Shown: positions 4,786 to 41,506 of the stretch, piece by piece
How the letters are laid out: every line of letters starts with the position of its first letter
How positions within the stretch are numbered: the first letter of the stretch is position 1
Sequence record: NC_105587.1
Reading direction: 5' to 3' (one strand)
Source of the DNA: Escherichia phage EC100
Length of the DNA stretch: 64,000 nucleotides
Translations under genes and position numbers: made by a program
Notes under the pieces: generated by a model
The model's input: only the letters and a program-made list of their open reading frames with translations
What the model was told of the DNA's origin: nothing
Database searches by the model: none

Positions 4786-4848
4786 ATATGTTATGGATGA
4801 GTGATCAAAGAGACACACATTTTCTGTATACTAGGAGGTGTCAAAAAA

Positions 4849-5840
4849 TGACAGAAGAAGTAGCTAAGAGTCCTGAGACCGTCGCTAGCGTTGCGGCAGA
4901 ACTGCACCGTCACGAGGAATCAGATAAGAAAAAGTGGGAGAAGGTCAGAGCCTACGAAGAAAAACATCGTGAACACGATGATGAAGACGATGAAGATGAC
5001 GATGATGAACATTGTCATAAATATGGAAAACATAAAATGCAAGAACCAGTAAACGTATTTACTAATGGCTTCCCTGGCCTACTAGGTGGTTACCCAGCAA
5101 ACGTAGGTGCTTTCGGTGGTGAAGGTATGGGACTATTCGGAGCTATCCTAATCGGCGCTCTATTAACAGGCGGATTCGGTGGTTTCGGTGGATTCGGTGG
5201 ACGTGGTGTTGTTGGTGAAGGTACCGCAGTTGATGCAGTACTTCAGAACCAAGATACCGCTAGTATTCTAGCAGCTATCAACACTACTCGTACAGAAGCT
5301 AACCAGGGTACCGGAGCTGTTTTAAGCGCAGTTAACAATGGTTTTAGCCAGACATCCCAAAACCAGAGCCGTGATACTCAGTCTGTATTAACTACGATCT
5401 ATGGTACAGGTGCTAATCTGTCTAATCAGATCTGCCAGGAAACCCGCAACGTTATTCAGGGTCAGTTCGATCTTTCTCGCCAGATTGATCAATCTTTCGC
5501 AGCTAACCAGATAGCTCGTGCACAAGATAAATTTGATTCTGCACAGATAGCTTTCCAGCAGACTTTACAAACTAATAACCAGTTTGCCGCTGTTCAGGCT
5601 CAGATGTGTGCTAACCAGAACTCTCTGGAACGTCAGATCGCTGAATGTTGCTGTGAACTTCAGACTGCGATCGCTGGTGTAACTACTGCGCGTATCCAGG
5701 ATGAGTTAGATGCATGTCGCCTACGTGAAGCAATCGCTGCGGGTAGCGGTGCTAACGGTCAGGTAATTAATCAAATCGCTTTAAGTCTTGGTGCTATCAC
5801 TCAGACTCTGGCTGGTCTGCAGGCTAAACTGCCGGCTTAA
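4849..5840 (+). CDS. low-complexity protein: acidic N-terminus, Gly-zipper hydrophobic segment, Q/N/T-rich Cys-containing C-terminus
   Basis: GGAGG ribosome-binding site 9 nt upstream of the ATG at 4849; acidic run DDEDDEDDDDE, GLFGAILIGALLTGGFGGFGGFGG, roughly 200 aa Q/N/A/T-rich tail with CCC. Confidence 0.55.
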
Positions 5841-5861: not shown

Positions 5862-6275
5862 ATGAGTAAATATGGTTTTGTAAATAACGGACTTAATCAA
5901 AGTATGGGCTCCCAGCAGCCCATTCCGGGTCTGGATAACCCCTACTTACAACAGTTGCAACAGCGTTTAGCAGAAGCGCAACAGATGCAGCAACAACTCC
6001 AGCAAAACCCTGGAAGTGTGAGTCCTATGCAAATGATGCAGCAAATGAGCGGGCAGTCGCAAATGCCTCAACAAATGCAGCAACAGATGCCGCAGCAAGT
6101 TCAGCAACAAACCCAACAACCGCAGGTTTCTGCGGAAGGACAGGCAGTACTAGCCCTTTTCGAAGACTTCGCAAAGACAGAGGATGGGAAACAGCTTGTA
6201 TCACTTATGGGTAAGTTTAATAGCTTCTGCCAAAGCCAAATTGCAAAAGCTCAAAATAGCGGTAATAACTCCTAA
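5862..6275 (+). CDS. glutamine-rich protein (137 aa)
   Basis: GGAGG ribosome-binding site; QQLQQRLAEAQQMQQQLQQ...QQMQQQMPQQVQQQTQQPQ; codon usage of highly expressed genes. Confidence 0.55.
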   Translation: MSKYGFVNNGLNQSMGSQQPIPGLDNPYLQQLQQRLAEAQQMQQQLQQNPGSVSPMQMMQQMSGQSQMPQQMQQQMPQQVQQQTQQPQVSAEGQAVLALFEDFAKTEDGKQLVSLMGKFNSFCQSQIAKAQNSGNNS

Positions 6276-6284
6276 GGAGGGATT

Positions 6285-6479
6285 ATGTGTTGCAGAAAAT
6301 CTGTTTCGTGCTGCCCAATGCCTGTAGCACGTTGTTGCTCTCCAGCAATGTTTACGCAAATACCGGCGTTCAATCCGTTTGCCTTTAAGCCTACTCTTAT
6401 CCTGCCCCCTAGAGTAGATTTTCAGTCAAGATTGGCCTCCCGTATGGGTGGTTGCTGTAATAAGAGTATATGGTTCTGA
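6285..6479 (+). CDS. cysteine-rich small protein with four vicinal CC pairs (64 aa)
   Basis: AGGAGG ribosome-binding site; MCCRKSVSCCPMPVARCCSP...GGCCNK; followed by an intrinsic terminator. Confidence 0.45.
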   Translation: MCCRKSVSCCPMPVARCCSPAMFTQIPAFNPFAFKPTLILPPRVDFQSRLASRMGGCCNKSIWF

Positions 6480-6495
6480 AGAACCAAACAATAAA

Positions 6496-6529
6496 GCCCC
6501 TAGTCGAAAGACTTAGGGGCTTTTCTTTT
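6496..6529 (+). terminator. intrinsic terminator ending the plus-strand low-complexity module
   Basis: GCCCCTAGTC-GAAA-GACTTAGGGGC hairpin followed by TTTTCTTTT. Confidence 0.75.
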
Positions 6530-6540
6530 ATCTTAAATAC

Positions 6541-6574
6541 AGAAAAGCCCTGCGCTCTCCAGGAAACGCAGGGC
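6541..6574 (-). terminator. intrinsic terminator after the SPFH gene
   Basis: GCCCTGCG ... CGCAGGGC hairpin with a U-tract on the minus strand; convergent with the 6496 terminator. Confidence 0.65.
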
Positions 6575-6599
6575 TTACTTCAGATGTTACATGCGGGTA

Positions 6600-7547
6600 T
6601 TATTTATTACGCATATCCATAATCATTTGGCCATCATAGCCAGTGCCAACCACAGTCTGCGGTACACCACCCTGATACTTCTGAGCACGAATCATTTCAA
6701 CTTCCAGTTGCTTCCAGCGAATCATCTCAGGAGTAATGGTACGTTGCAGTGCGGCGTTAGCTTCAGCTTCTTTCTTAGCTGCGTACAGTTTAGCATCTGC
6801 ATCACGTTCATTAGCAATAGCTTGGTTGTTGCGAGCTTCACGATCTGCTTCTGCTTGTTTAACTTTTTGCTGTGCTTCCTGTTCAACACGAGCTAATTCA
6901 GCTTTAGCAGCATTAACCTGTTCTTCACGAACTTTGGTATTCTGTACCTGTTCCATGATTACCGGTGGCAAAGTAATATCCTGAAGGAACACCTGCTTAA
7001 CTGTGTAACCATATGGGCGTGCATACTCTTCAACTTCCTGTTGAATTGCAGTTTGCAATTGAGCCTGAATTTTAGCATCAAACAAATCTTGTGCTTTAGG
7101 CACAGACTTACCAAACTCACGAATAGTAGACAATAATTTTTCAGTTACATATTTGTCTAACGCTTGATCCTGAGTACCTGCATTAATACGGTTAATCGGT
7201 GCCTTAGAACCATCAAATTGCAACATAACAGTCAAGTCAACAGTGGATTTAAACTTATCCTGACTAGGAACCTGAAGTTTATCTAATTTTACAGCAATAT
7301 CTTTTGTACTAAAAGTATCGAAAGATGCAAACGGGTTTACAAGATGGAAACCAGGTAATACTGGGTTAGGATCTACTTTACCCAGAAATGTTTGGGTTTT
7401 AACCGTACCATCAGAAACAATAGTATATGAATTAAAAGCTAGGATTAAACCTGCTAAACCAACTACAGCACCAATACCCCAACGTTTAATAGTACGAATT
7501 ACTTTCTGCTCAGAAGTCAGTTCTTTCATATTTTTAGTATTAAACAT
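6600..7547 (-). CDS. SPFH/band-7 (HflC/prohibitin-like) membrane protein
   Basis: N-terminal transmembrane helix (WGIGAVVGLAGLILAF), SPFH-like core, C-terminal Ala/Glu/Gln-rich coiled coil; ATG with AGGA ribosome-binding site. Confidence 0.65.
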   Translation of the reverse strand: MFNTKNMKELTSEQKVIRTIKRWGIGAVVGLAGLILAFNSYTIVSDGTVKTQTFLGKVDPNPVLPGFHLVNPFASFDTFSTKDIAVKLDKLQVPSQDKFKSTVDLTVMLQFDGSKAPINRINAGTQDQALDKYVTEKLLSTIREFGKSVPKAQDLFDAKIQAQLQTAIQQEVEEYARPYGYTVKQVFLQDITLPPVIMEQVQNTKVREEQVNAAKAELARVEQEAQQKVKQAEADREARNNQAIANERDADAKLYAAKKEAEANAALQRTITPEMIRWKQLEVEMIRAQKYQGGVPQTVVGTGYDGQMIMDMRNK

Positions 7548-7581: not shown

Positions 7582-7656
7582 TGGCCGAGGTGACAGGATT
7601 CGAACCTGCATAAAGGAATTTAGAAGACTCCTGCCTCTCCCTTAGACTACACCCCG
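7582..7656 (-). tRNA. tRNA-Arg (anticodon UCU)
   Basis: Acceptor CGGGGTG/CACCTCG, anticodon stem GGAGT/ATTCC with loop CTTCTAA, T-arm GCAGG-TTCGAAT-CCTGT, CCA. Confidence 0.7.
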
Positions 7657-8157
7657 TTTAAGTATTTTTAAGAACTCTCGTAAAAACTCTTAAAAATACA
7701 GACGATACCGGGAGAGTCATAAGTCTCACTCATTAAGTATTTCAAGACAAAATACAGTAACGTCTATTATTTTCCAGTTTAAGTCAAGGTGACTTAGTGG
7801 TTATGTCCTGCGGTATATTGAGGACTCGGTTAGGTTAGGGTCATGACTCCCCACCTTTTTGCTGCTACTCAACAGGAGTTATCGCGAATTACCTGTGCTA
7901 TTGTGCACCATTAGTGGCATCTCTCATGCCAGCATTTCCCACTTTATGTATAGCTTGAAAAACTACTCCGATATGGAGGAAAAACTTCACTATCTAGAAT
8001 ACCTTCTAAAGTTCTTCTTTAGCCTGGACATAGTTAAATCGTAATAAAACTATTCAGCAGACTGGTTGGTTAGTCTGGAACCAACTACCGCGTGGTTTAG
8101 GCAGTGCGCAACTAACCTCGGAAGCTTTTACGTTAAAAGCATCAGTTATCCAGTTCT

Positions 8158-8229
8158 TACCGACCGTAGGATTCGAACCTACATCTTCCACCAGTTACGG
8201 CTTGATAATACCAATTATACTAGGACGGC
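8158..8229 (-). tRNA. tRNA-like element (degenerate, possible pseudo-tRNA)
   Basis: T-arm GTAGG-TTCGAAT-CCTAC identical to the one in the 1271-1353 tRNA, acceptor stem with one mismatch, no clean anticodon stem, no CCA. Confidence 0.25.
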
Positions 8230-8305
8230 AGTGTTACTACATAAGTGATTTCCACACCCCACTATTTATAAATTAGATAGAAATTACTCTCTAATTTATG
8301 AATAT

Positions 8306-8334
8306 ATTATATAGAATTTATAAGCATTTAGCAA
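8306..8334 (-). promoter_or_regulatory. T5 early-class promoter (TTGCTA, 17 bp, TATAAT)
   Basis: Minus-strand TTGCTA-17-TATAAT with the conserved CATAAATT downstream box. Confidence 0.6.
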
Positions 8335-9015: not shown

Positions 9016-9465
9016 TTAAGTTTTAGTGACAACAGGTTTATAGAATGTATGTCCCTTAATCTTAGTTGTTTTCTTAAATTTCTTTGTCCAGTAAGGTTTA
9101 TCTTTACCACTATGGAAGTATAGTGCTCCATGTGTAGGATCTTGTGGTAAATCAACGTAGTATATCACTCTAGCTAAATTCTTAGCGGTTTGCCAAGCCT
9201 CATCAGTTTTATCAACTTTTGGTCTCTTAGATACCCAAGAGAACTGGTTAGACTGATATACTACTTTACAGTAGGAATCTGGGAATTTACCGGAGTTTAC
9301 ACGGTTTTTAGTAACATGTGCAATCGCCGTCATTCCCTTTATGCCCTCACCACGACTTTCGAAATAGATATTTTTAGCAATGCAATCTATTTCTTTTGCA
9401 TCGTGCGACGCCTGACTACTAAAGCTGAAGGTAAGGGCAGCTACTAAAAGCAAAGCTGCCTTCAT
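9016..9465 (-). CDS. secreted cell wall hydrolase, SleB/Hydrolase_2-like
   Basis: Signal peptide MKAALLLVAALTFSFSSQA; conserved block IYFESRGEGIKGMTAIAHVTKNRV...VVYQSNQFSW; start moved to ATG 9465 with AGGAG ribosome-binding site. Confidence 0.6.
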   Translation of the reverse strand: MKAALLLVAALTFSFSSQASHDAKEIDCIAKNIYFESRGEGIKGMTAIAHVTKNRVNSGKFPDSYCKVVYQSNQFSWVSKRPKVDKTDEAWQTAKNLARVIYYVDLPQDPTHGALYFHSGKDKPYWTKKFKKTTKIKGHTFYKPVVTKT

Positions 9466-9470
9466 TCTTT

Positions 9471-9788
9471 TTACTCCTGCCAATCATATTCAACACGATT
9501 GGGATTTTCTTTATACCCTAAGTCAAGCAAATCATTACGCATATTTTGCTTAGCTACTGGGTTCGAGGTTACTAGTACCACTTTCTTTGGTCTCTGCCCA
9601 AATTCTAAGAGTAAACGAAGAATTTGATAACCTTCCATACCATCTACAGCCAAGTCATTATCCATATAAACGAAGTGGCCTGTGGTATCAGTTTTATTCA
9701 GAAACTCTACAGCGGCTTCTGGGGTTCGAATGATAATGTCCATTCCGTGAAGATTACGCACATCATCAATCAAAATATGAAAAGTCAT
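9471..9788 (-). CDS. stand-alone CheY-like receiver (REC) domain protein
   Basis: Aligns by eye to CheY: ILIDD (acidic pair), YMDNDL..GMEGYQIL (phospho-acceptor Asp), VVLVTS (Thr), GYKENP (Lys); 105 aa. Confidence 0.5.
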   Translation of the reverse strand: MTFHILIDDVRNLHGMDIIIRTPEAAVEFLNKTDTTGHFVYMDNDLAVDGMEGYQILRLLLEFGQRPKKVVLVTSNPVAKQNMRNDLLDLGYKENPNRVEYDWQE

Positions 9789-10230: not shown

Positions 10231-10869
10231 TTACTCTACTTCAATAAAGGTAGAGGCGTTAGACTCGGACAGAACAAAGTCAACATTTGTTGCAAAGTCC
10301 TGGTATTCCTCGTCATGCTGCTTAATCAGCTTCTCCAGTTCCAGCGGATCAATCAAGAATGGAGTATTCTTGAGTTCCAGCAGGTTGAGCTGCATTTTAA
10401 CTTCATCTTCGGAAGTTTTCTTATCGCGGGTAGCCATGCTATCCTGCAAACGCTCGTATTTAGCATCAAACTGTGCTTTCTGCGTATTAAACTTAACCGT
10501 AGCGGCATGGAACTGCTTACGCATGTTAGCCAGCAGTTGAGCTTTAAGTTCCATACAACGCTTAGCTTCAATTGCTTCCGCAACAGTCATCTTACGAGAA
10601 CCGATCTCAACGATTGTTTCTGCATTGCTCTTAATCAGAGCAGCTTTGATACGATCACGCTGGGACATCATATCCAGCAGAGACTGGAAATCTGTCTTAA
10701 TACGCTCAGATAAATCAGCTACTTCGATTGCAGCACCAACTACAACCTGGTTTTTATCCTTACCTTCACCAACAGCGATCAGAAGCTGCTGTTCAGTAGC
10801 TTTACGGATTTTAGCTTCCAGAGATTTGATAGTTGCTAGAGCGCGAGTTTTAGAAATACGAGTAGTCAT
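10231..10869 (-). CDS. hypothetical coiled-coil protein, likely abundant (212 aa)
   Basis: AAGGAAG ribosome-binding site; E. coli-optimal codon usage; no catalytic motif. Confidence 0.55.
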   Translation of the reverse strand: MTTRISKTRALATIKSLEAKIRKATEQQLLIAVGEGKDKNQVVVGAAIEVADLSERIKTDFQSLLDMMSQRDRIKAALIKSNAETIVEIGSRKMTVAEAIEAKRCMELKAQLLANMRKQFHAATVKFNTQKAQFDAKYERLQDSMATRDKKTSEDEVKMQLNLLELKNTPFLIDPLELEKLIKQHDEEYQDFATNVDFVLSESNASTFIEVE

Positions 10870-39667: not shown

Positions 39668-40157
39668 TTTCAAATTGCCCGTCTATGCGTTACGGGCGTT
39701 TGTATCAATTGAGCAAGAAGGTGATTATTCCGTAATTACAACAAGATATAATAAATATGTGCTAGATAACAGGAAGTTGCCTGGCACGTTTTCTCAACGT
39801 AGGCTTATTCTATTTGAGAAACGGAAAGAATTACCGTACAAGCTCTATCCTATTAGAGGTAGAATATCAATGTTGTCCCAATTAGTTGGGTCAAAGCGTA
39901 GCCAATTTATAGATTCTGATGGAAATCTTATTAATTGGAAGAAAACTACGTTCTATGATGTTGTTACCTCTAAAGTTTTGCATTCAGCTAGAATTTATAA
40001 CGGAAAATACCAATGCTATGTAGCTAAAGTTCCATATCCATTTGTATTATCCTATGTTCCAGCGTATATAAGCTATATTCTGGTAAATAATAGCCCTGTT
40101 ATTTATCAAGTCCATCAAGAGGAGCCTGAAATTCCTAGACTTAGAATAAAATTATGA
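39660..40157 (+). CDS. hypothetical protein (165 aa)
   Basis: GTG start overlapping the polymerase stop; no motif recognised. Confidence 0.4.
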   Translation: MLDFKLPVYALRAFVSIEQEGDYSVITTRYNKYVLDNRKLPGTFSQRRLILFEKRKELPYKLYPIRGRISMLSQLVGSKRSQFIDSDGNLINWKKTTFYDVVTSKVLHSARIYNGKYQCYVAKVPYPFVLSYVPAYISYILVNNSPVIYQVHQEEPEIPRLRIKL

Positions 40158-41506
40158 AGGTTGTTATATCTAATAAAGCCTATTTCAAGCCCGATGATGA
40201 ACTTTGGGATTATTGTAGTAAGCAAACCACTTATCACATTGAGACAATGACTAGTAAATACCCTATTATGTATAAGAATAGTGGTGTTGTTGCTAAAGAG
40301 ATTAAGTGGATTCCTATCACGCGTCTAGATTTACTAGATGCTAAAGGAGTAAAATACGAATTAGTCGATAAACGCACATTAGCCCCAGTAGATATACCAA
40401 AACCTAAGTTTAAGCTGCGTGAAGAAGACCAGCTCCCAATATATGAAGAGTGCGATGATACCTGTATTATTAATGGTAAGCCTGGATTTGGCAAAACTAT
40501 CCTAGCCCTGGCACTTGCGTATAAATTTGGCCAGAAAACTTTGGTAATTTGTACCAACACATCTATTCGTGAAATGTGGGCGGCAGAAGTTCGTAAATGG
40601 TTTGGGTTCGAACCGGGCATTATAGGTTCTGGGAAATACAATATTGATCCACCAATTGTAGTCAGTAATATTCAAACAGTAAATAAACATGCGAATAATC
40701 TTTCTAAAGTATTCGGTACTGTTATAGTTGACGAAGTTCACCATTGTGTGGCTACAACTTTCACTAACTTCCTAGAAATATCATGTGCTCGCTATAAGAT
40801 TGGACTATCTGGAACATTAAAACGTAAAGATGGTCTACAAGTTATGTTCAAAGACTTCTTTGGATATAAGATCTTCAGCCCGCCTGTTAATAATACTGTT
40901 GCACCTACAATCCATAGGTACTCTGTACCTGTTGAGTTATCAGGAAATCAGAATGTGCCATGGGCATTACGTGCTAATGATGTGTACAACCATCCTGAAT
41001 ATCGAGAGACTATTATAAACTTAGCACACTTATACGTGAATATGGGGCATAAAGTACTCATTGTAAGTGACAGAACAGAGTTAATCCAAACAGTACTAGA
41101 AGCTCTCGCACAGCGTGGTGTTACAACATATGAAATTATAGGGGCAACTCACTTAGATGACCGATTAAAAATTCAGGAAGATATAGCAAAAGGTGGACCT
41201 TGTGTACTTGCAGCAGCTCAAAGTATCTTCTCTGAAGGTATTTCCCTTAATGAGTTGTCTTGTTTAATAATGGGAAGTCTCATTAATAATGAATCTCTCA
41301 TCGAACAGCTTGCAGGACGTGTTCAACGTATTGTCGATGGTAAACTAGACCCTATTGTTGTAGATCTAATTATGAAAGGTGGCACTGGACTAAGACAGGC
41401 TTCTGGACGTATGGCAGTATATCGTAACAACGGGTGGAAAACTATTACCATGACCCCTGAGAAAGCAGTTCAATTAGCTAAAATTGCATTTGGCAACAGC
41501 TCATAA
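40154..41506 (+). CDS. SF2 DEAH-type helicase (T5 D10-like)
   Basis: Walker A GKPGFGKT, motif II IVDEVHH; 450 aa; ATGA overlap with the upstream stop. Confidence 0.8.
   Translation: MKVVISNKAYFKPDDELWDYCSKQTTYHIETMTSKYPIMYKNSGVVAKEIKWIPITRLDLLDAKGVKYELVDKRTLAPVDIPKPKFKLREEDQLPIYEECDDTCIINGKPGFGKTILALALAYKFGQKTLVICTNTSIREMWAAEVRKWFGFEPGIIGSGKYNIDPPIVVSNIQTVNKHANNLSKVFGTVIVDEVHHCVATTFTNFLEISCARYKIGLSGTLKRKDGLQVMFKDFFGYKIFSPPVNNTVAPTIHRYSVPVELSGNQNVPWALRANDVYNHPEYRETIINLAHLYVNMGHKVLIVSDRTELIQTVLEALAQRGVTTYEIIGATHLDDRLKIQEDIAKGGPCVLAAAQSIFSEGISLNELSCLIMGSLINNESLIEQLAGRVQRIVDGKLDPIVVDLIMKGGTGLRQASGRMAVYRNNGWKTITMTPEKAVQLAKIAFGNSS

Follow-up and report, generated by a model that had tools for sequence, protein, structure and literature searches.

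The minus-strand open reading frame at 6600-7547 of the window (the whole 64,000-nucleotide stretch of Escherichia phage EC100 DNA, NC_105587.1, that was analysed) is the orthologue of T5.080, an accessory gene of the T5-like early region. It encodes an SPFH/band-7 protein, predicted to be anchored in the host inner membrane with its SPFH domain facing the periplasm. Taking the evidence together, we consider it probable that the product of this early accessory gene forms a homo-oligomeric cage in the inner membrane and there acts on membrane proteins of the host.

The earlier note on this DNA had reported a phage-encoded SPFH/band-7 protein; the observation is confirmed and its interpretation is partly supported, the roles that it put forward (FtsH modulation, exclusion) being candidates only. 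The novelty that it implied is not borne out: the gene and its band-7 domain are already known as annotation, the T5 orthologue having been labelled 'putative transmembrane protein, IPR001107 band 7 protein' (AAX12012.1) since the T5 record AY587007 of 2005. The observation by itself adds little, because GenBank entries for T5 have included the band-7 gene for some twenty years and SPFH proteins are listed in many phage genome papers. Our literature search found annotation-level mentions only and no study of function for an SPFH protein of any phage; what these proteins do in bacteriophages is described as poorly understood (PMC7760394). What is added here is that the protein is neither a lipoprotein nor a copy of hflK, hflC or qmcA, together with a topology prediction and data on selection and distribution.

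The gene and its transcription unit

In the list of open reading frames, the gene encodes 315 aa, with an ATG start and a TAA stop at 6600-6602. The window is that of a T5-like phage, with 100% identity to Escherichia phage EC122 and 92% to T5. The protein is 99.4% identical to T5.080 (AAS77126.1 / YP_006908.1 / AAX12012.1) and matches the phrog_200 profile with E=1.7e-86; both phrog_200 and the RefSeq entry YP_006908.1 are labelled 'lipoprotein', a point to which we return below. A match to phrog_11227 'protease' (E=0.001, residues 185-288) was set aside because it falls in a low-complexity helix. Sequence and T5 annotation together show a promoter-to-terminator transcript unit for the SPFH gene, with the following elements:

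8306..8334, minus strand: sigma-70-type promoter TTGCTA-17-TATAAT, 10/12 consensus matches, equivalent to T5 promoter P16-17
7657..8300, minus strand: counterpart of the T5 stable RNA 'RNAX', from the T5 rnaX annotation
7582..7656, minus strand: tRNA-Arg(UCU), called by ARAGORN, Rfam tRNA 49.3 bits
7553..7557, minus strand: Shine-Dalgarno AAGGA, 5 nt before the ATG, read from the sequence
6600..7547, minus strand: SPFH/band-7 coding sequence, 315 aa, orthologue of T5.080 (open reading frame, Pfam, phrog_200 and T5 identity)
6536..6576, minus strand: intrinsic terminator of the SPFH gene, a G+C-rich hairpin followed by a U-tract, annotated in T5 too
6493..6530, plus strand: intrinsic terminator of the plus-strand module, converging with the SPFH terminator

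The T5 record annotates P16-17 at the position corresponding to 8306..8334, and this promoter probably starts a transcript that runs through RNAX and tRNA-Arg into the SPFH gene, whose start codon lies 34 nt beyond the end of the tRNA. Within RNAX, a degenerate tRNA-like element (8158-8229) scores 35.5 bits with the Rfam tRNA model and receives no ARAGORN call. Downstream, the claim that the terminator is convergent with that of a low-complexity module proved correct: a 13-bp minus-strand hairpin at 6576-6545 (-22.9 kcal/mol, z=-4.6), with UUUUCUGUAUU after it, meets a hairpin of the plus strand, which lies at 6493-6523 (-20.2 kcal/mol, z=-5.5) and has UUUUCUUUU after it. The terminator at 6493..6530 can work both ways because its hairpin folds on the minus strand too (-19.8 kcal/mol), and the T5 record describes the corresponding sequence as an 'efficient bidirectional rho-independent terminator'. 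The SPFH gene is flanked by tRNA-Arg and RNAX on one side and by convergent, unrelated open reading frames on the other, the plus-strand low-complexity module consisting of those at 4788-5840, 5862-6275 and 6285-6479. Pfam and PHROG scans of neighbouring open reading frames in the window detected no NfeD gene and no second SPFH gene.

Domain architecture and predicted topology

The Band_7 profile search, which had been proposed as a check, matched Pfam Band_7/SPFH (PF01145; InterPro IPR001107) to residues 52-225 with E=2e-17 and 64.2 bits, exceeding the curated cutoff of 23.6 bits. An AlphaFold2 monomer model (mean pLDDT 78.6, pTM 0.46) places a transmembrane (TM) helix at 12-38, an alpha/beta SPFH core at 40-192 and a 76-residue helix at 195-270, then a helix at 273-290 and short strands. 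The corresponding codons are:

7419..7481, minus strand: single TM helix, about residues 23-43, from hydropathy and charge count
6873..7394, minus strand: Band_7/SPFH domain, residues 52-225, the Pfam envelope (alpha/beta core 40-192 in the model)
6738..6965, minus strand: 'CC1' wall helix of SPFH cages, 76 residues (195-270) rich in Ala/Glu/Lys/Gln, from AlphaFold2
6603..6731, minus strand: second helix (273-290) and C-terminal tail (291-315), from AlphaFold2 and conserved columns

Foldseek aligned nearly the whole model (270-305 columns, E 1e-14 to 1e-8) with erlin, prohibitin (PHB), HflK/C, stomatin, QmcA and flotillin protomers, covering every SPFH cage solved so far, with a probability of 1.00 for stomatin SPFH cores and full-length cage protomers. 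The protein combines an above-cutoff profile match, an SPFH fold followed by a long helix and an N-terminal anchor, as expected of a member of the SPFH superfamily; the N-terminal TM helix and the SPFH core of the earlier note both stand.

The C-terminal coiled coil that the note had proposed stands only as a long helix. Residues 195-270 align in Foldseek with the HflK/C, PHB and erlin CC helices, but neither hydrophobicity nor conservation revealed a significant 3.5 (heptad) or 3.67 (hendecad) periodicity in it, so that we regard it as an SPFH-typical 'CC' wall helix and not as a demonstrable canonical coiled coil. An indel census of homologues found the wall helix lengthened by 11 or 22 residues or shortened by 11, a pattern that has no periodicity signal behind it. 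The C-terminal tail (291-315) carries the motif GGVPQTVVG..G..MIMDMR in invariant and near-invariant columns (mean information 3.15 bits), yet has low pLDDT in the monomer model. A conserved tail of low pLDDT, combined with a wall helix that changes only in 11-/22-residue steps, hints at an oligomer; because the model covers the monomer only, cage assembly of the phage protein is an analogy.

Hydropathy gives one TM candidate only, at about residues 23-43 (Kyte-Doolittle 1.79), and 244 of the 246 full-length relatives have an N-terminal membrane anchor. Residues 1-23 contain 6 K/R against 2 D/E and the C-side flank of the helix is neutral; an excess of K+R on the N side recurs in 109/117 close homologues, the bias being weaker among distant relatives (66 vs 25). 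From these charges the positive-inside rule, which is the only basis of the call, predicts an N-in topology with the SPFH domain facing the periplasm, as in HflK/C and prohibitin.

Distribution, selection and loss

Sequence comparison assigns the protein to a stand-alone SPFH clade that is common to T5-like, T4-like and other virulent phages, where it occurs in unrelated genomic neighbourhoods. T5.080 itself lies on the same strand and in the same place, between tRNA-Arg/RNAX and the bidirectional terminator; the DNA changes are mostly synonymous, and coordinate offsets make the RNAX region ~83 nt longer in T5 than in the window. The T4-like proteins (RB43 ORF139c, RB16, GAP161_127, 44RR ORF098c and Aeh1 ORF064c) have ~300 aa and a single TM helix, and Nolan et al. 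2006 (PMC1524935) placed T4-like homologues under 'SPFH domain/Band 7 family'. Identity is 74-78% for the copies in Pseudotevenvirus and Slopekvirus and about 60% for those of T4-like Aeromonas phages, whereas Aeh1-type copies (AsFcp_2) are only ~33% identical and form a separate branch. In contrast to the T5-like arrangement, the T4-like gene sits after rI/rI.-1 and before an NMNAT/NUDIX gene. Block transfer of the SPFH and NMN adenylyltransferase genes between T5-like (polluks) and T4-like (GAP161) phages was considered and rejected: the NMNAT proteins of polluks and GAP161 are only ~20% identical, in short segments, and their spacers are not alignable.

Chromosomal SPFH proteins of the same length and architecture are found in Morganella and Providencia (Morganellaceae; 57-62% identical) and in Methylophagaceae/Methylococcaceae (33-41%). 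These cellular relatives are single genes in ordinary chromosomal contexts, for which reason a prophage origin was rejected for the loci examined; the Methylophaga copy directly follows a Mur-ligase-family (FolC-like) gene, and no NfeD gene was found beside the relatives at the loci scanned. The search for relatives yielded 1,882 representatives. A rough NJ tree nests the Morganellaceae copies within the phage radiation, suggesting exchange between phages and hosts.

Substitution rates indicate strong purifying selection on the gene: dN/dS is 0.009-0.09 among T5-like phages (dS up to 0.88), and the window and T5 genes differ by dS=0.30 and dN=0.003, with 99.4% amino-acid identity. At an identity of at least 90%, ~430 phage records carry the SPFH protein vs ~440 with the T5-type DNA polymerase, and close T5 relatives have the gene in roughly 98% of cases. 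Such selection, together with the sharing of the gene with T4-like phages, suggests a host target that is conserved. In the laboratory the phage can do without the gene: a deletion of about 8.2 kb, which also takes away tRNAs, RNAX and further genes, removes it from the viable T5 st0, BF23 is without it (PMC12752171) and NG_S8 has a 42-residue remnant. Given these losses, any role must be conditional.

A proposed mechanism and its alternatives

In the mechanism that we favour, the sigma-70 promoter would drive an RNAX - tRNA-Arg - mRNA transcript of which the SPFH gene is the last cistron, with its own intrinsic terminator. The product would be a bitopic inner-membrane protein with a short basic cytoplasmic N-terminus and one TM helix, the SPFH domain and the long helices being predicted to lie in the periplasm. 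Judging by all full-length SPFH proteins solved so far, ~20-26 copies would by analogy assemble into a closed homo-oligomeric cage that covers a patch of the inner membrane, with a wall presumably made of the long helices and a cap made of the conserved C-terminal tail. During infection this cage would enclose inner-membrane proteins of the host or keep them out. Because the gene is stand-alone and moves between unrelated virulent phages, a conserved component of the host is a likelier client than a partner from the phage; FtsH would be the best-precedented client, one candidate only and by precedent only. The benefit would be conditional, since the gene is strongly conserved in nature and unneeded for plaques on laboratory E. 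coli.

Several observations fit this mechanism less well: (i), the closest solved protein by sequence, E. coli QmcA, reportedly faces the cytoplasm (Chiba, Ito and Akiyama 2006); (ii), sequence similarity to HflK/C, the sole SPFH proteins known to hold FtsH, is not detectable; (iii), the N-side charge bias weakens in distant relatives and the long helix lacks significant periodicity; and (iv), the gene has been lost in st0, BF23 and NG_S8.

A more specific possibility, which takes up the idea of the earlier note and which we hold tentatively, is that the phage hijacks or mimics the host HflK/C-FtsH system, its cage trapping FtsH hexamers or displacing HflK/C, and that altered degradation of membrane or regulatory substrates would benefit it. 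The predicted orientation and the protomer architecture are those of HflK/C, whose cages enclose FtsH in three structures (7wi3, 7vhq and 9cz2), all among the fold matches; in addition, several E. coli proteins change in stability when HflK/C is lost (PMC12005517). The phage, however, has a single gene and not a K/C pair. FtsH-contact residues cannot be inferred since no HflK/HflC sequence similarity is detectable, and the classic lambda CII logic is inapplicable because T5 is strictly virulent. A literature search for an experimental link between T5 and FtsH found none.

Alternatively, and again with considerable doubt, the protein could control envelope events and not proteolysis: it might act in superinfection exclusion, set the time of lysis, take part in lysis inhibition, or protect the inner membrane and the proton-motive force from holins that fire too early or from abortive-infection effectors that target membranes. 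In the T4-like GAP161 (and by annotation in RB16 and RB43) the gene directly follows the lysis-inhibition genes rI and rI.-1, and an Aeromonas T4-like phage has a 'lysis inhibition' gene within 3 kb. Laboratory dispensability combined with strong natural conservation is typical of competition- or defence-related accessory genes, and bacterial SPFH proteins participate in membrane-stress responses (PMC8581546). On the other hand, the tk-rI-nrdC interval is a variable insertion region with neighbours that differ by lineage; because they do so in every lineage examined, the adjacency to rI/rI.-1 is a weak lead that may be positional. PADLOC-DB defence models gave no match at E<=1, so that no link to a defence system can be assigned.

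We consider it unlikely that the protein is instead a cytoplasm-facing scaffold of the stomatin/QmcA type (N-out/C-in), with a part in organising the inner leaflet or partners in the cytoplasm, such as membrane-located factors of phage replication or assembly. QmcA is the best sequence match and both stomatin and QmcA cages are strong fold matches, but a strongly basic N-terminus stands opposite a neutral C-side flank, with the same bias in 109/117 close homologues. Moreover, QmcA-type proteins are normally paired with NfeD, which is missing from the scanned neighbours and from the cellular loci, and the top fold matches are the TM-anchored luminal or periplasmic cages of erlin, PHB and HflK/C.

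It is highly improbable that the gene is a decaying passenger without a phage function: its deletion or absence in the viable T5 st0, BF23 and NG_S8 would fit, but dN/dS stays at 0.009-0.09, the reading frame is intact in about 430 close relatives, conservation is high over the whole length and the promoter, Shine-Dalgarno sequence and terminator are retained. Finally, we give practically no credence to a lipoprotein, for which the one argument is the phrog_200 label, also that of RefSeq YP_006908.1 and propagated into many records: the obligatory lipobox cysteine is absent (0 Cys in the full sequence), the first 45 residues contain a lipobox-like motif in 0/120 close homologues, and Cys occurs anywhere in only 6/120. 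This identity is ruled out for the protein and already refuted for the clade, for which the PHROGs/RefSeq label is wrong and 'SPFH/band 7 domain membrane protein' would be better.

More speculatively, virulent phages of several unrelated lineages (T5-like, T4-like and others) could share a horizontally exchanged, periplasm-facing SPFH cage that is installed early as a host-takeover or counter-defence device; it would, for example, sequester FtsH or another conserved inner-membrane machine, or shield the membrane from premature depolarisation by holins or by abortive-infection effectors. If true, this would be the first function assigned to virus-encoded SPFH proteins. Identifying the target of the favoured inner-membrane cage would show how viruses use membrane-compartmentalising cages, the same question being raised by the SPFH genes of giant viruses. 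The gene offers a convenient entry point, as it belongs to the best-studied T5 system, in which a viable strain without it (T5 st0) exists.

Comparison with known SPFH cages

A copy of host hflK, hflC or qmcA is ruled out by identities of 15-20%. No NCBIfam model matches at E<=1, so that no subfamily name can be assigned. The best PDB sequence match is E. coli QmcA (E=1.8e-6 with a single sequence, 2.4e-7 with a profile); PHB2 (E=1e-4) and PHB1 (E=2e-4) are matched by the profile at ~20% identity, a similarity that leaves the subfamily undecided because its strength is similar to that of the QmcA match. The E. coli HflK/HflC chains in the PDB were matched neither by phmmer nor by the profile. 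The 'HflC/prohibitin-type' assignment in the earlier note agrees with the predicted orientation, which is that of HflK/C and prohibitin and not of QmcA or stomatin, but by sequence the protein is not of the HflC/HflK family and there is no K/C pair.

The phage protein resembles HflK/HflC (PDB 7wi3, 7vhq and 9cz2; Foldseek E 2e-12 to 1e-7 over ~280-300 columns) in the order of its protomer, with a TM anchor, SPFH domain, long wall helix and cap segment, and in its predicted N-in, periplasm-facing orientation; it differs in sequence (16-17% identity) and in being encoded by one SPFH gene. Structurally the closest are erlin 1/2 (Foldseek E 1e-14) and prohibitin 1/2 (~1e-12). They have the type II orientation predicted for the phage protein, but they are hetero-oligomeric eukaryotic complexes with 15-19% identity, whereas the phage has a single gene. 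By sequence no solved protein is closer than QmcA (PDB 8z5g; E=2e-7, ~20% identity). QmcA differs from the phage protein in being encoded with an NfeD partner, YbbJ, while no NfeD gene was detected among the scanned neighbours of the phage gene, and the phage charge bias predicts the opposite orientation. QmcA forms a homo-oligomeric cage from one SPFH gene.

Identity of the SPFH gene

The open reading frame at 6600..7547 (minus strand) encodes a protein of 315 residues, with a TAA stop at 6600-6602 and an ATG start that has AAGGA upstream of it at a spacing of 5 nt. Residues 52-225 match Pfam Band_7/SPFH (PF01145; E=2e-17, 64.2 bits, gathering cutoff 23.6 bits), and the full length matches phrog_200 (E=1.7e-86). 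The earlier note had proposed an SPFH/band-7 protein from the sequence alone and, as the profile match is present, this observation stands. The gene is phage-encoded: the window is a T5-like genome of the Tequintavirus type (family Demerecviridae), the 6 kb surrounding the gene match Escherichia phages EC122, EC105, EC104 and EC142 at 100% identity and bacteriophage T5 at 92%, and the protein is 99.4% identical to T5.080 (AAS77126.1 / YP_006908.1). As an annotation the gene was already known, and the assignment is correct but not new: the T5 record AY587007 labels T5.080 "putative transmembrane protein; IPR001107: band 7 protein", and several relatives are labelled "SPFH domain-containing protein" or have "band 7 domain-containing protein" as their label; the T4-like homologues 44RR ORF098c, Aeh1 ORF064c and RB43 ORF139c were tabulated as "SPFH domain/Band 7 family" (Nolan et al. 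2006, PMC1524935). For this clade "lipoprotein", the name given by phrog_200 and RefSeq, is an error: Cys is absent from the protein, and a lipobox-like motif occurs in 0 of 120 close homologues.

Transcription context and neighbouring genes

The features around the gene are as follows.

8334-8306, minus: promoter TTGCTA-17-TATAAT, counterpart of T5 promoter P16-17 (from the sequence and the T5 annotation)
7657-8300, minus: counterpart of T5 "RNAX", a stable RNA with no known function
8158-8229, minus: degenerate tRNA-like element inside the RNAX counterpart (Rfam tRNA, 35.5 bits; gathering score 29)
7582-7656, minus: tRNA-Arg(UCU), between the RNAX counterpart and the SPFH coding sequence
6576-6545, minus: SPFH terminator, a 13-bp hairpin (-22.9 kcal/mol)
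6493-6523, plus: hairpin closing the convergent plus-strand module (-20.2 kcal/mol)
4788-5840, 5862-6275 and 6285-6479, plus: ORFs of the low-complexity module, convergent to the SPFH gene

The RNAX region is ~83 nt shorter than that of T5. ARAGORN calls no tRNA at 8158-8229; other records place a pseudo-tRNA inside RNAX (T5) or a 'tRNA-OTHER' in this region (EC122). The convergent terminators described in the earlier note are borne out, the SPFH hairpin facing that of the module, whose counterpart is annotated in T5 as an efficient bidirectional terminator. T5 also carries a major single-strand interruption ('nick 3, 32.6%'; consensus Pu/GCGC, the slash marking the interruption) 44 nt 3' of the SPFH stop. 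This site is kept in the window (6555-6556, minus strand GA/GCGC) and falls within the SPFH terminator stem (6545-6576), on its descending arm, so that nick site and terminator overlap.

In the module, ORFs 4788-5840 and 5862-6275 match phrog_8119 (E=2e-205) and phrog_7894 (E=6e-78), both families of unknown function, and neither has a Pfam match; the label 'cAMP-dependent protein kinase catalytic subunit (kapc)' given in AY587007 to the Q-rich 137-aa protein is unsupported, with no kinase domain match. The third ORF (64 aa, counterpart of T5.079), between the Q-rich protein and the terminator, encodes eight Cys as four CC doublets (MCCRKSVSCC...ARCC...GGCC). Further along the minus strand, 9016-9483 encodes a SleB-type cell-wall hydrolase (Pfam Hydrolase_2, E=2e-25) with a signal-peptide-like N-terminus, overlapped upstream by 9471-9788, which encodes a cREC_REC 'cyclic-phosphate processing receiver' domain (E=4e-15); neither of these T5 early-region genes has a known role. 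The early-region protein of 212 aa at 10231-10869 (minus) matches phrog_1491 'tail fiber protein' (E=3e-81), a label that looks doubtful: Pfam has no match and the T5 counterpart, T5.085, is annotated hypothetical.

Conservation and dispensability

The gene is under strong purifying selection, with pairwise Nei-Gojobori dN/dS of 0.009-0.09 among T5-like phages (dN=0.003 and dS=0.30 between the window and T5; dN=0.041 and dS=0.88 between the window and UTK0009). Close relatives of T5 appear to have it almost without exception, judging from two totals rather than from records matched one by one: ~430 phage records hold the protein at >=90% identity and ~440 hold the window's T5-type DNA polymerase at >=90%. 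The gene is nevertheless dispensable for phage growth. In the viable, heat-stable deletion mutant T5 st0 (AY692264) the junction lies between tRNA-Asp and a truncated T5p079; its right side corresponds to wild-type ~41,879, past the SPFH gene at 39,791-40,738, and the stretch of st0 examined yields no significant match to the SPFH coding sequence. BF23 is reported to be without the band-7 gene (PMC12752171), and in the Epseptimavirus NG_S8 only the final 42 codons remain. Strong conservation in nature together with dispensability in the laboratory makes this an accessory, condition-dependent gene.

Distribution and origin

Among 1.84 billion representatives, a profile search detected 1,882 relatives at E<=1e-3, of which 81 reach E<=1e-30. 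Nearly all members of the close family are phage-borne: besides the copies in T5-like phages, T4-like Pseudotevenvirus, Slopekvirus and related phages share 74-78% identity with the window protein and Aeromonas T4-like phages ~60%, Salmonella phage SE131 and Proteus phage J3S have homologues on ~90-kb genomes, and remoter ones (28-35%) occur in Aeh1-type and N4-like Vibrio phages. In a structure search of viral proteins, numerous further phages and also giant viruses showed SPFH folds. The gene neighbours differ in every phage lineage compared. In Salmonella phage polluks (Epseptimavirus; L074, 2645-5513) a NadR-type NMNAT and a PnuC-like transporter lie 3' of the SPFH gene on the same strand, and in Cronobacter phage GAP161 (T4-like; L003, 4971-7118) an NMNAT/NUDIX bifunctional gene does; the two NMNATs share ~20% identity over short stretches and are unrelated, so this adjacency with NAD salvage arose twice or by chance.

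Chromosomal relatives occur in Morganella and Providencia (57-62%, the closest cellular homologues, including Providencia vermicola, L012) and in Methylophagaceae, Methylococcaceae and other gammaproteobacterial MAGs (33-41%). None of the loci examined is a prophage. In Methylophaga the gene is flanked by Mur-ligase-family (FolC-like) and malate:quinone-oxidoreductase-family genes; the upstream run looks like truA-trpFBA-accD-folC, going by gene order and N-terminal sequences, with a profile scan of the two flanking genes only. The Morganella gene adjoins an HlyD/C39-ABC exporter; in M. morganii (L020, CP173058.1, 5968-11316) it lies by a 91-aa peptide gene, HlyD and the C39-peptidase ABC exporter, an arrangement that resembles an export cluster for a microcin or bacteriocin. 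No NfeD partner was found beside the Methylophaga and Morganella genes. Several SPFH-bearing 'bacterial' or 'plasmid' records of ~174-178 kb (L008, P0028, P0053, P0062), named Flagellimonas marina (L008, NZ_JBHSCL010000010.1, 178,077 bp), Enterobacter asburiae and Klebsiella pneumoniae 'plasmid', have the size of T4-like phage genomes and are probably phage contamination or mislabelling.

A rough neighbour-joining tree without support values places the Morganellaceae copies inside the phage radiation and the methylotroph clade outside it. Tentatively, this tree suggests that the gene was captured from Gammaproteobacteria long ago, spread among virulent phages and was exchanged with Morganellaceae at least once.

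Protein architecture and proposed function

The product is a TM-anchored, full-length SPFH protomer, encoded by a conserved, selected gene with its own expression signals. Hydropathy gives a sole TM candidate at residues ~23-43. An AlphaFold2 model (mean pLDDT 78.6), made with an alignment of 20 family sequences, consists of a helix (12-38), an alpha/beta SPFH core (40-192), a helix of 76 residues (195-270), another helix (273-290) and short low-confidence strands at the C-terminus. The domain layout of the earlier note thus holds for the TM helix, the SPFH core and the C-terminal helical region, but its coiled coil is unproven: the long helix is rich in Ala/Glu/Lys/Gln and neither 3.5- nor 3.67-residue periodicity is significant in it, and we therefore call it the SPFH "CC" wall helix. 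Among 117 close homologues its length changes only by +11 (10 clusters), +22 (1) or -11 (1) residues. The insertions fall at one site, residues 250-251 (window ~6795-6800; homologues P0086, P0100, P0110, P0113, P0117), and look like tandem copies of the adjacent 11-residue motif A-D/E-A-K-x-Y-A-A-x-K-E; no hydrophobicity periodicity matching these steps was detectable.

Foldseek aligned the model over 270-305 columns, at 15-20% identity, with protomers of every solved SPFH cage in the PDB: erlin1/2 (E ~1e-14), prohibitin 1/2 (1e-12), HflK/C (2e-12 to 1e-7), stomatin (~1e-12 to 1e-11), QmcA (9e-11) and flotillin (~1e-8), with the major vault protein shoulder as a further match. The gene was not captured from host hflK, hflC or qmcA. 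NCBIfam gives 0 models at E<=1, and sequence searches of the PDB match only QmcA (1.8e-6; profile 2.4e-7), PHB2 (~1e-4) and PHB1 (2e-4), leaving E. coli HflK and HflC, both present there, unmatched. The 23 residues preceding the TM helix hold 6 K/R against 2 D/E, the flank after it is neutral, and a K+R excess on the N-terminal side is found in 109 of 117 close homologues; by the positive-inside rule, a cytoplasmic N-terminus and a periplasmic SPFH domain are predicted. Of the "HflC/prohibitin-type" protein first proposed, the architecture and the predicted orientation are retained, but membership of the HflC family is not.

Taking all full-length SPFH proteins of solved structure as analogues, we infer that copies would assemble as a closed homo-oligomeric cage above a patch of inner membrane. 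The C-terminal tail is near-invariant and poorly ordered in the monomer model, as expected if it folds only in the oligomer cap. No NfeD gene or second SPFH gene was found among the neighbours scanned. Since this is a stand-alone gene that passes from phage to unrelated phage, the target of such a cage is probably a conserved host membrane component. The functional proposals are candidates. FtsH, the sole client with a bacterial structural precedent (HflK/C), is a rather unlikely one because the phage protein has no sequence similarity to HflK/C; lysis timing, superinfection exclusion and membrane protection are about as likely, rI and rI.-1, which adjoin the gene in T4-like phages, being a weak lead. 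The orientation predicted for the phage protein is that of HflK/C, prohibitin and erlin, and its charge distribution speaks against that of QmcA, which is reported to have the opposite one (Chiba, Ito and Akiyama 2006).
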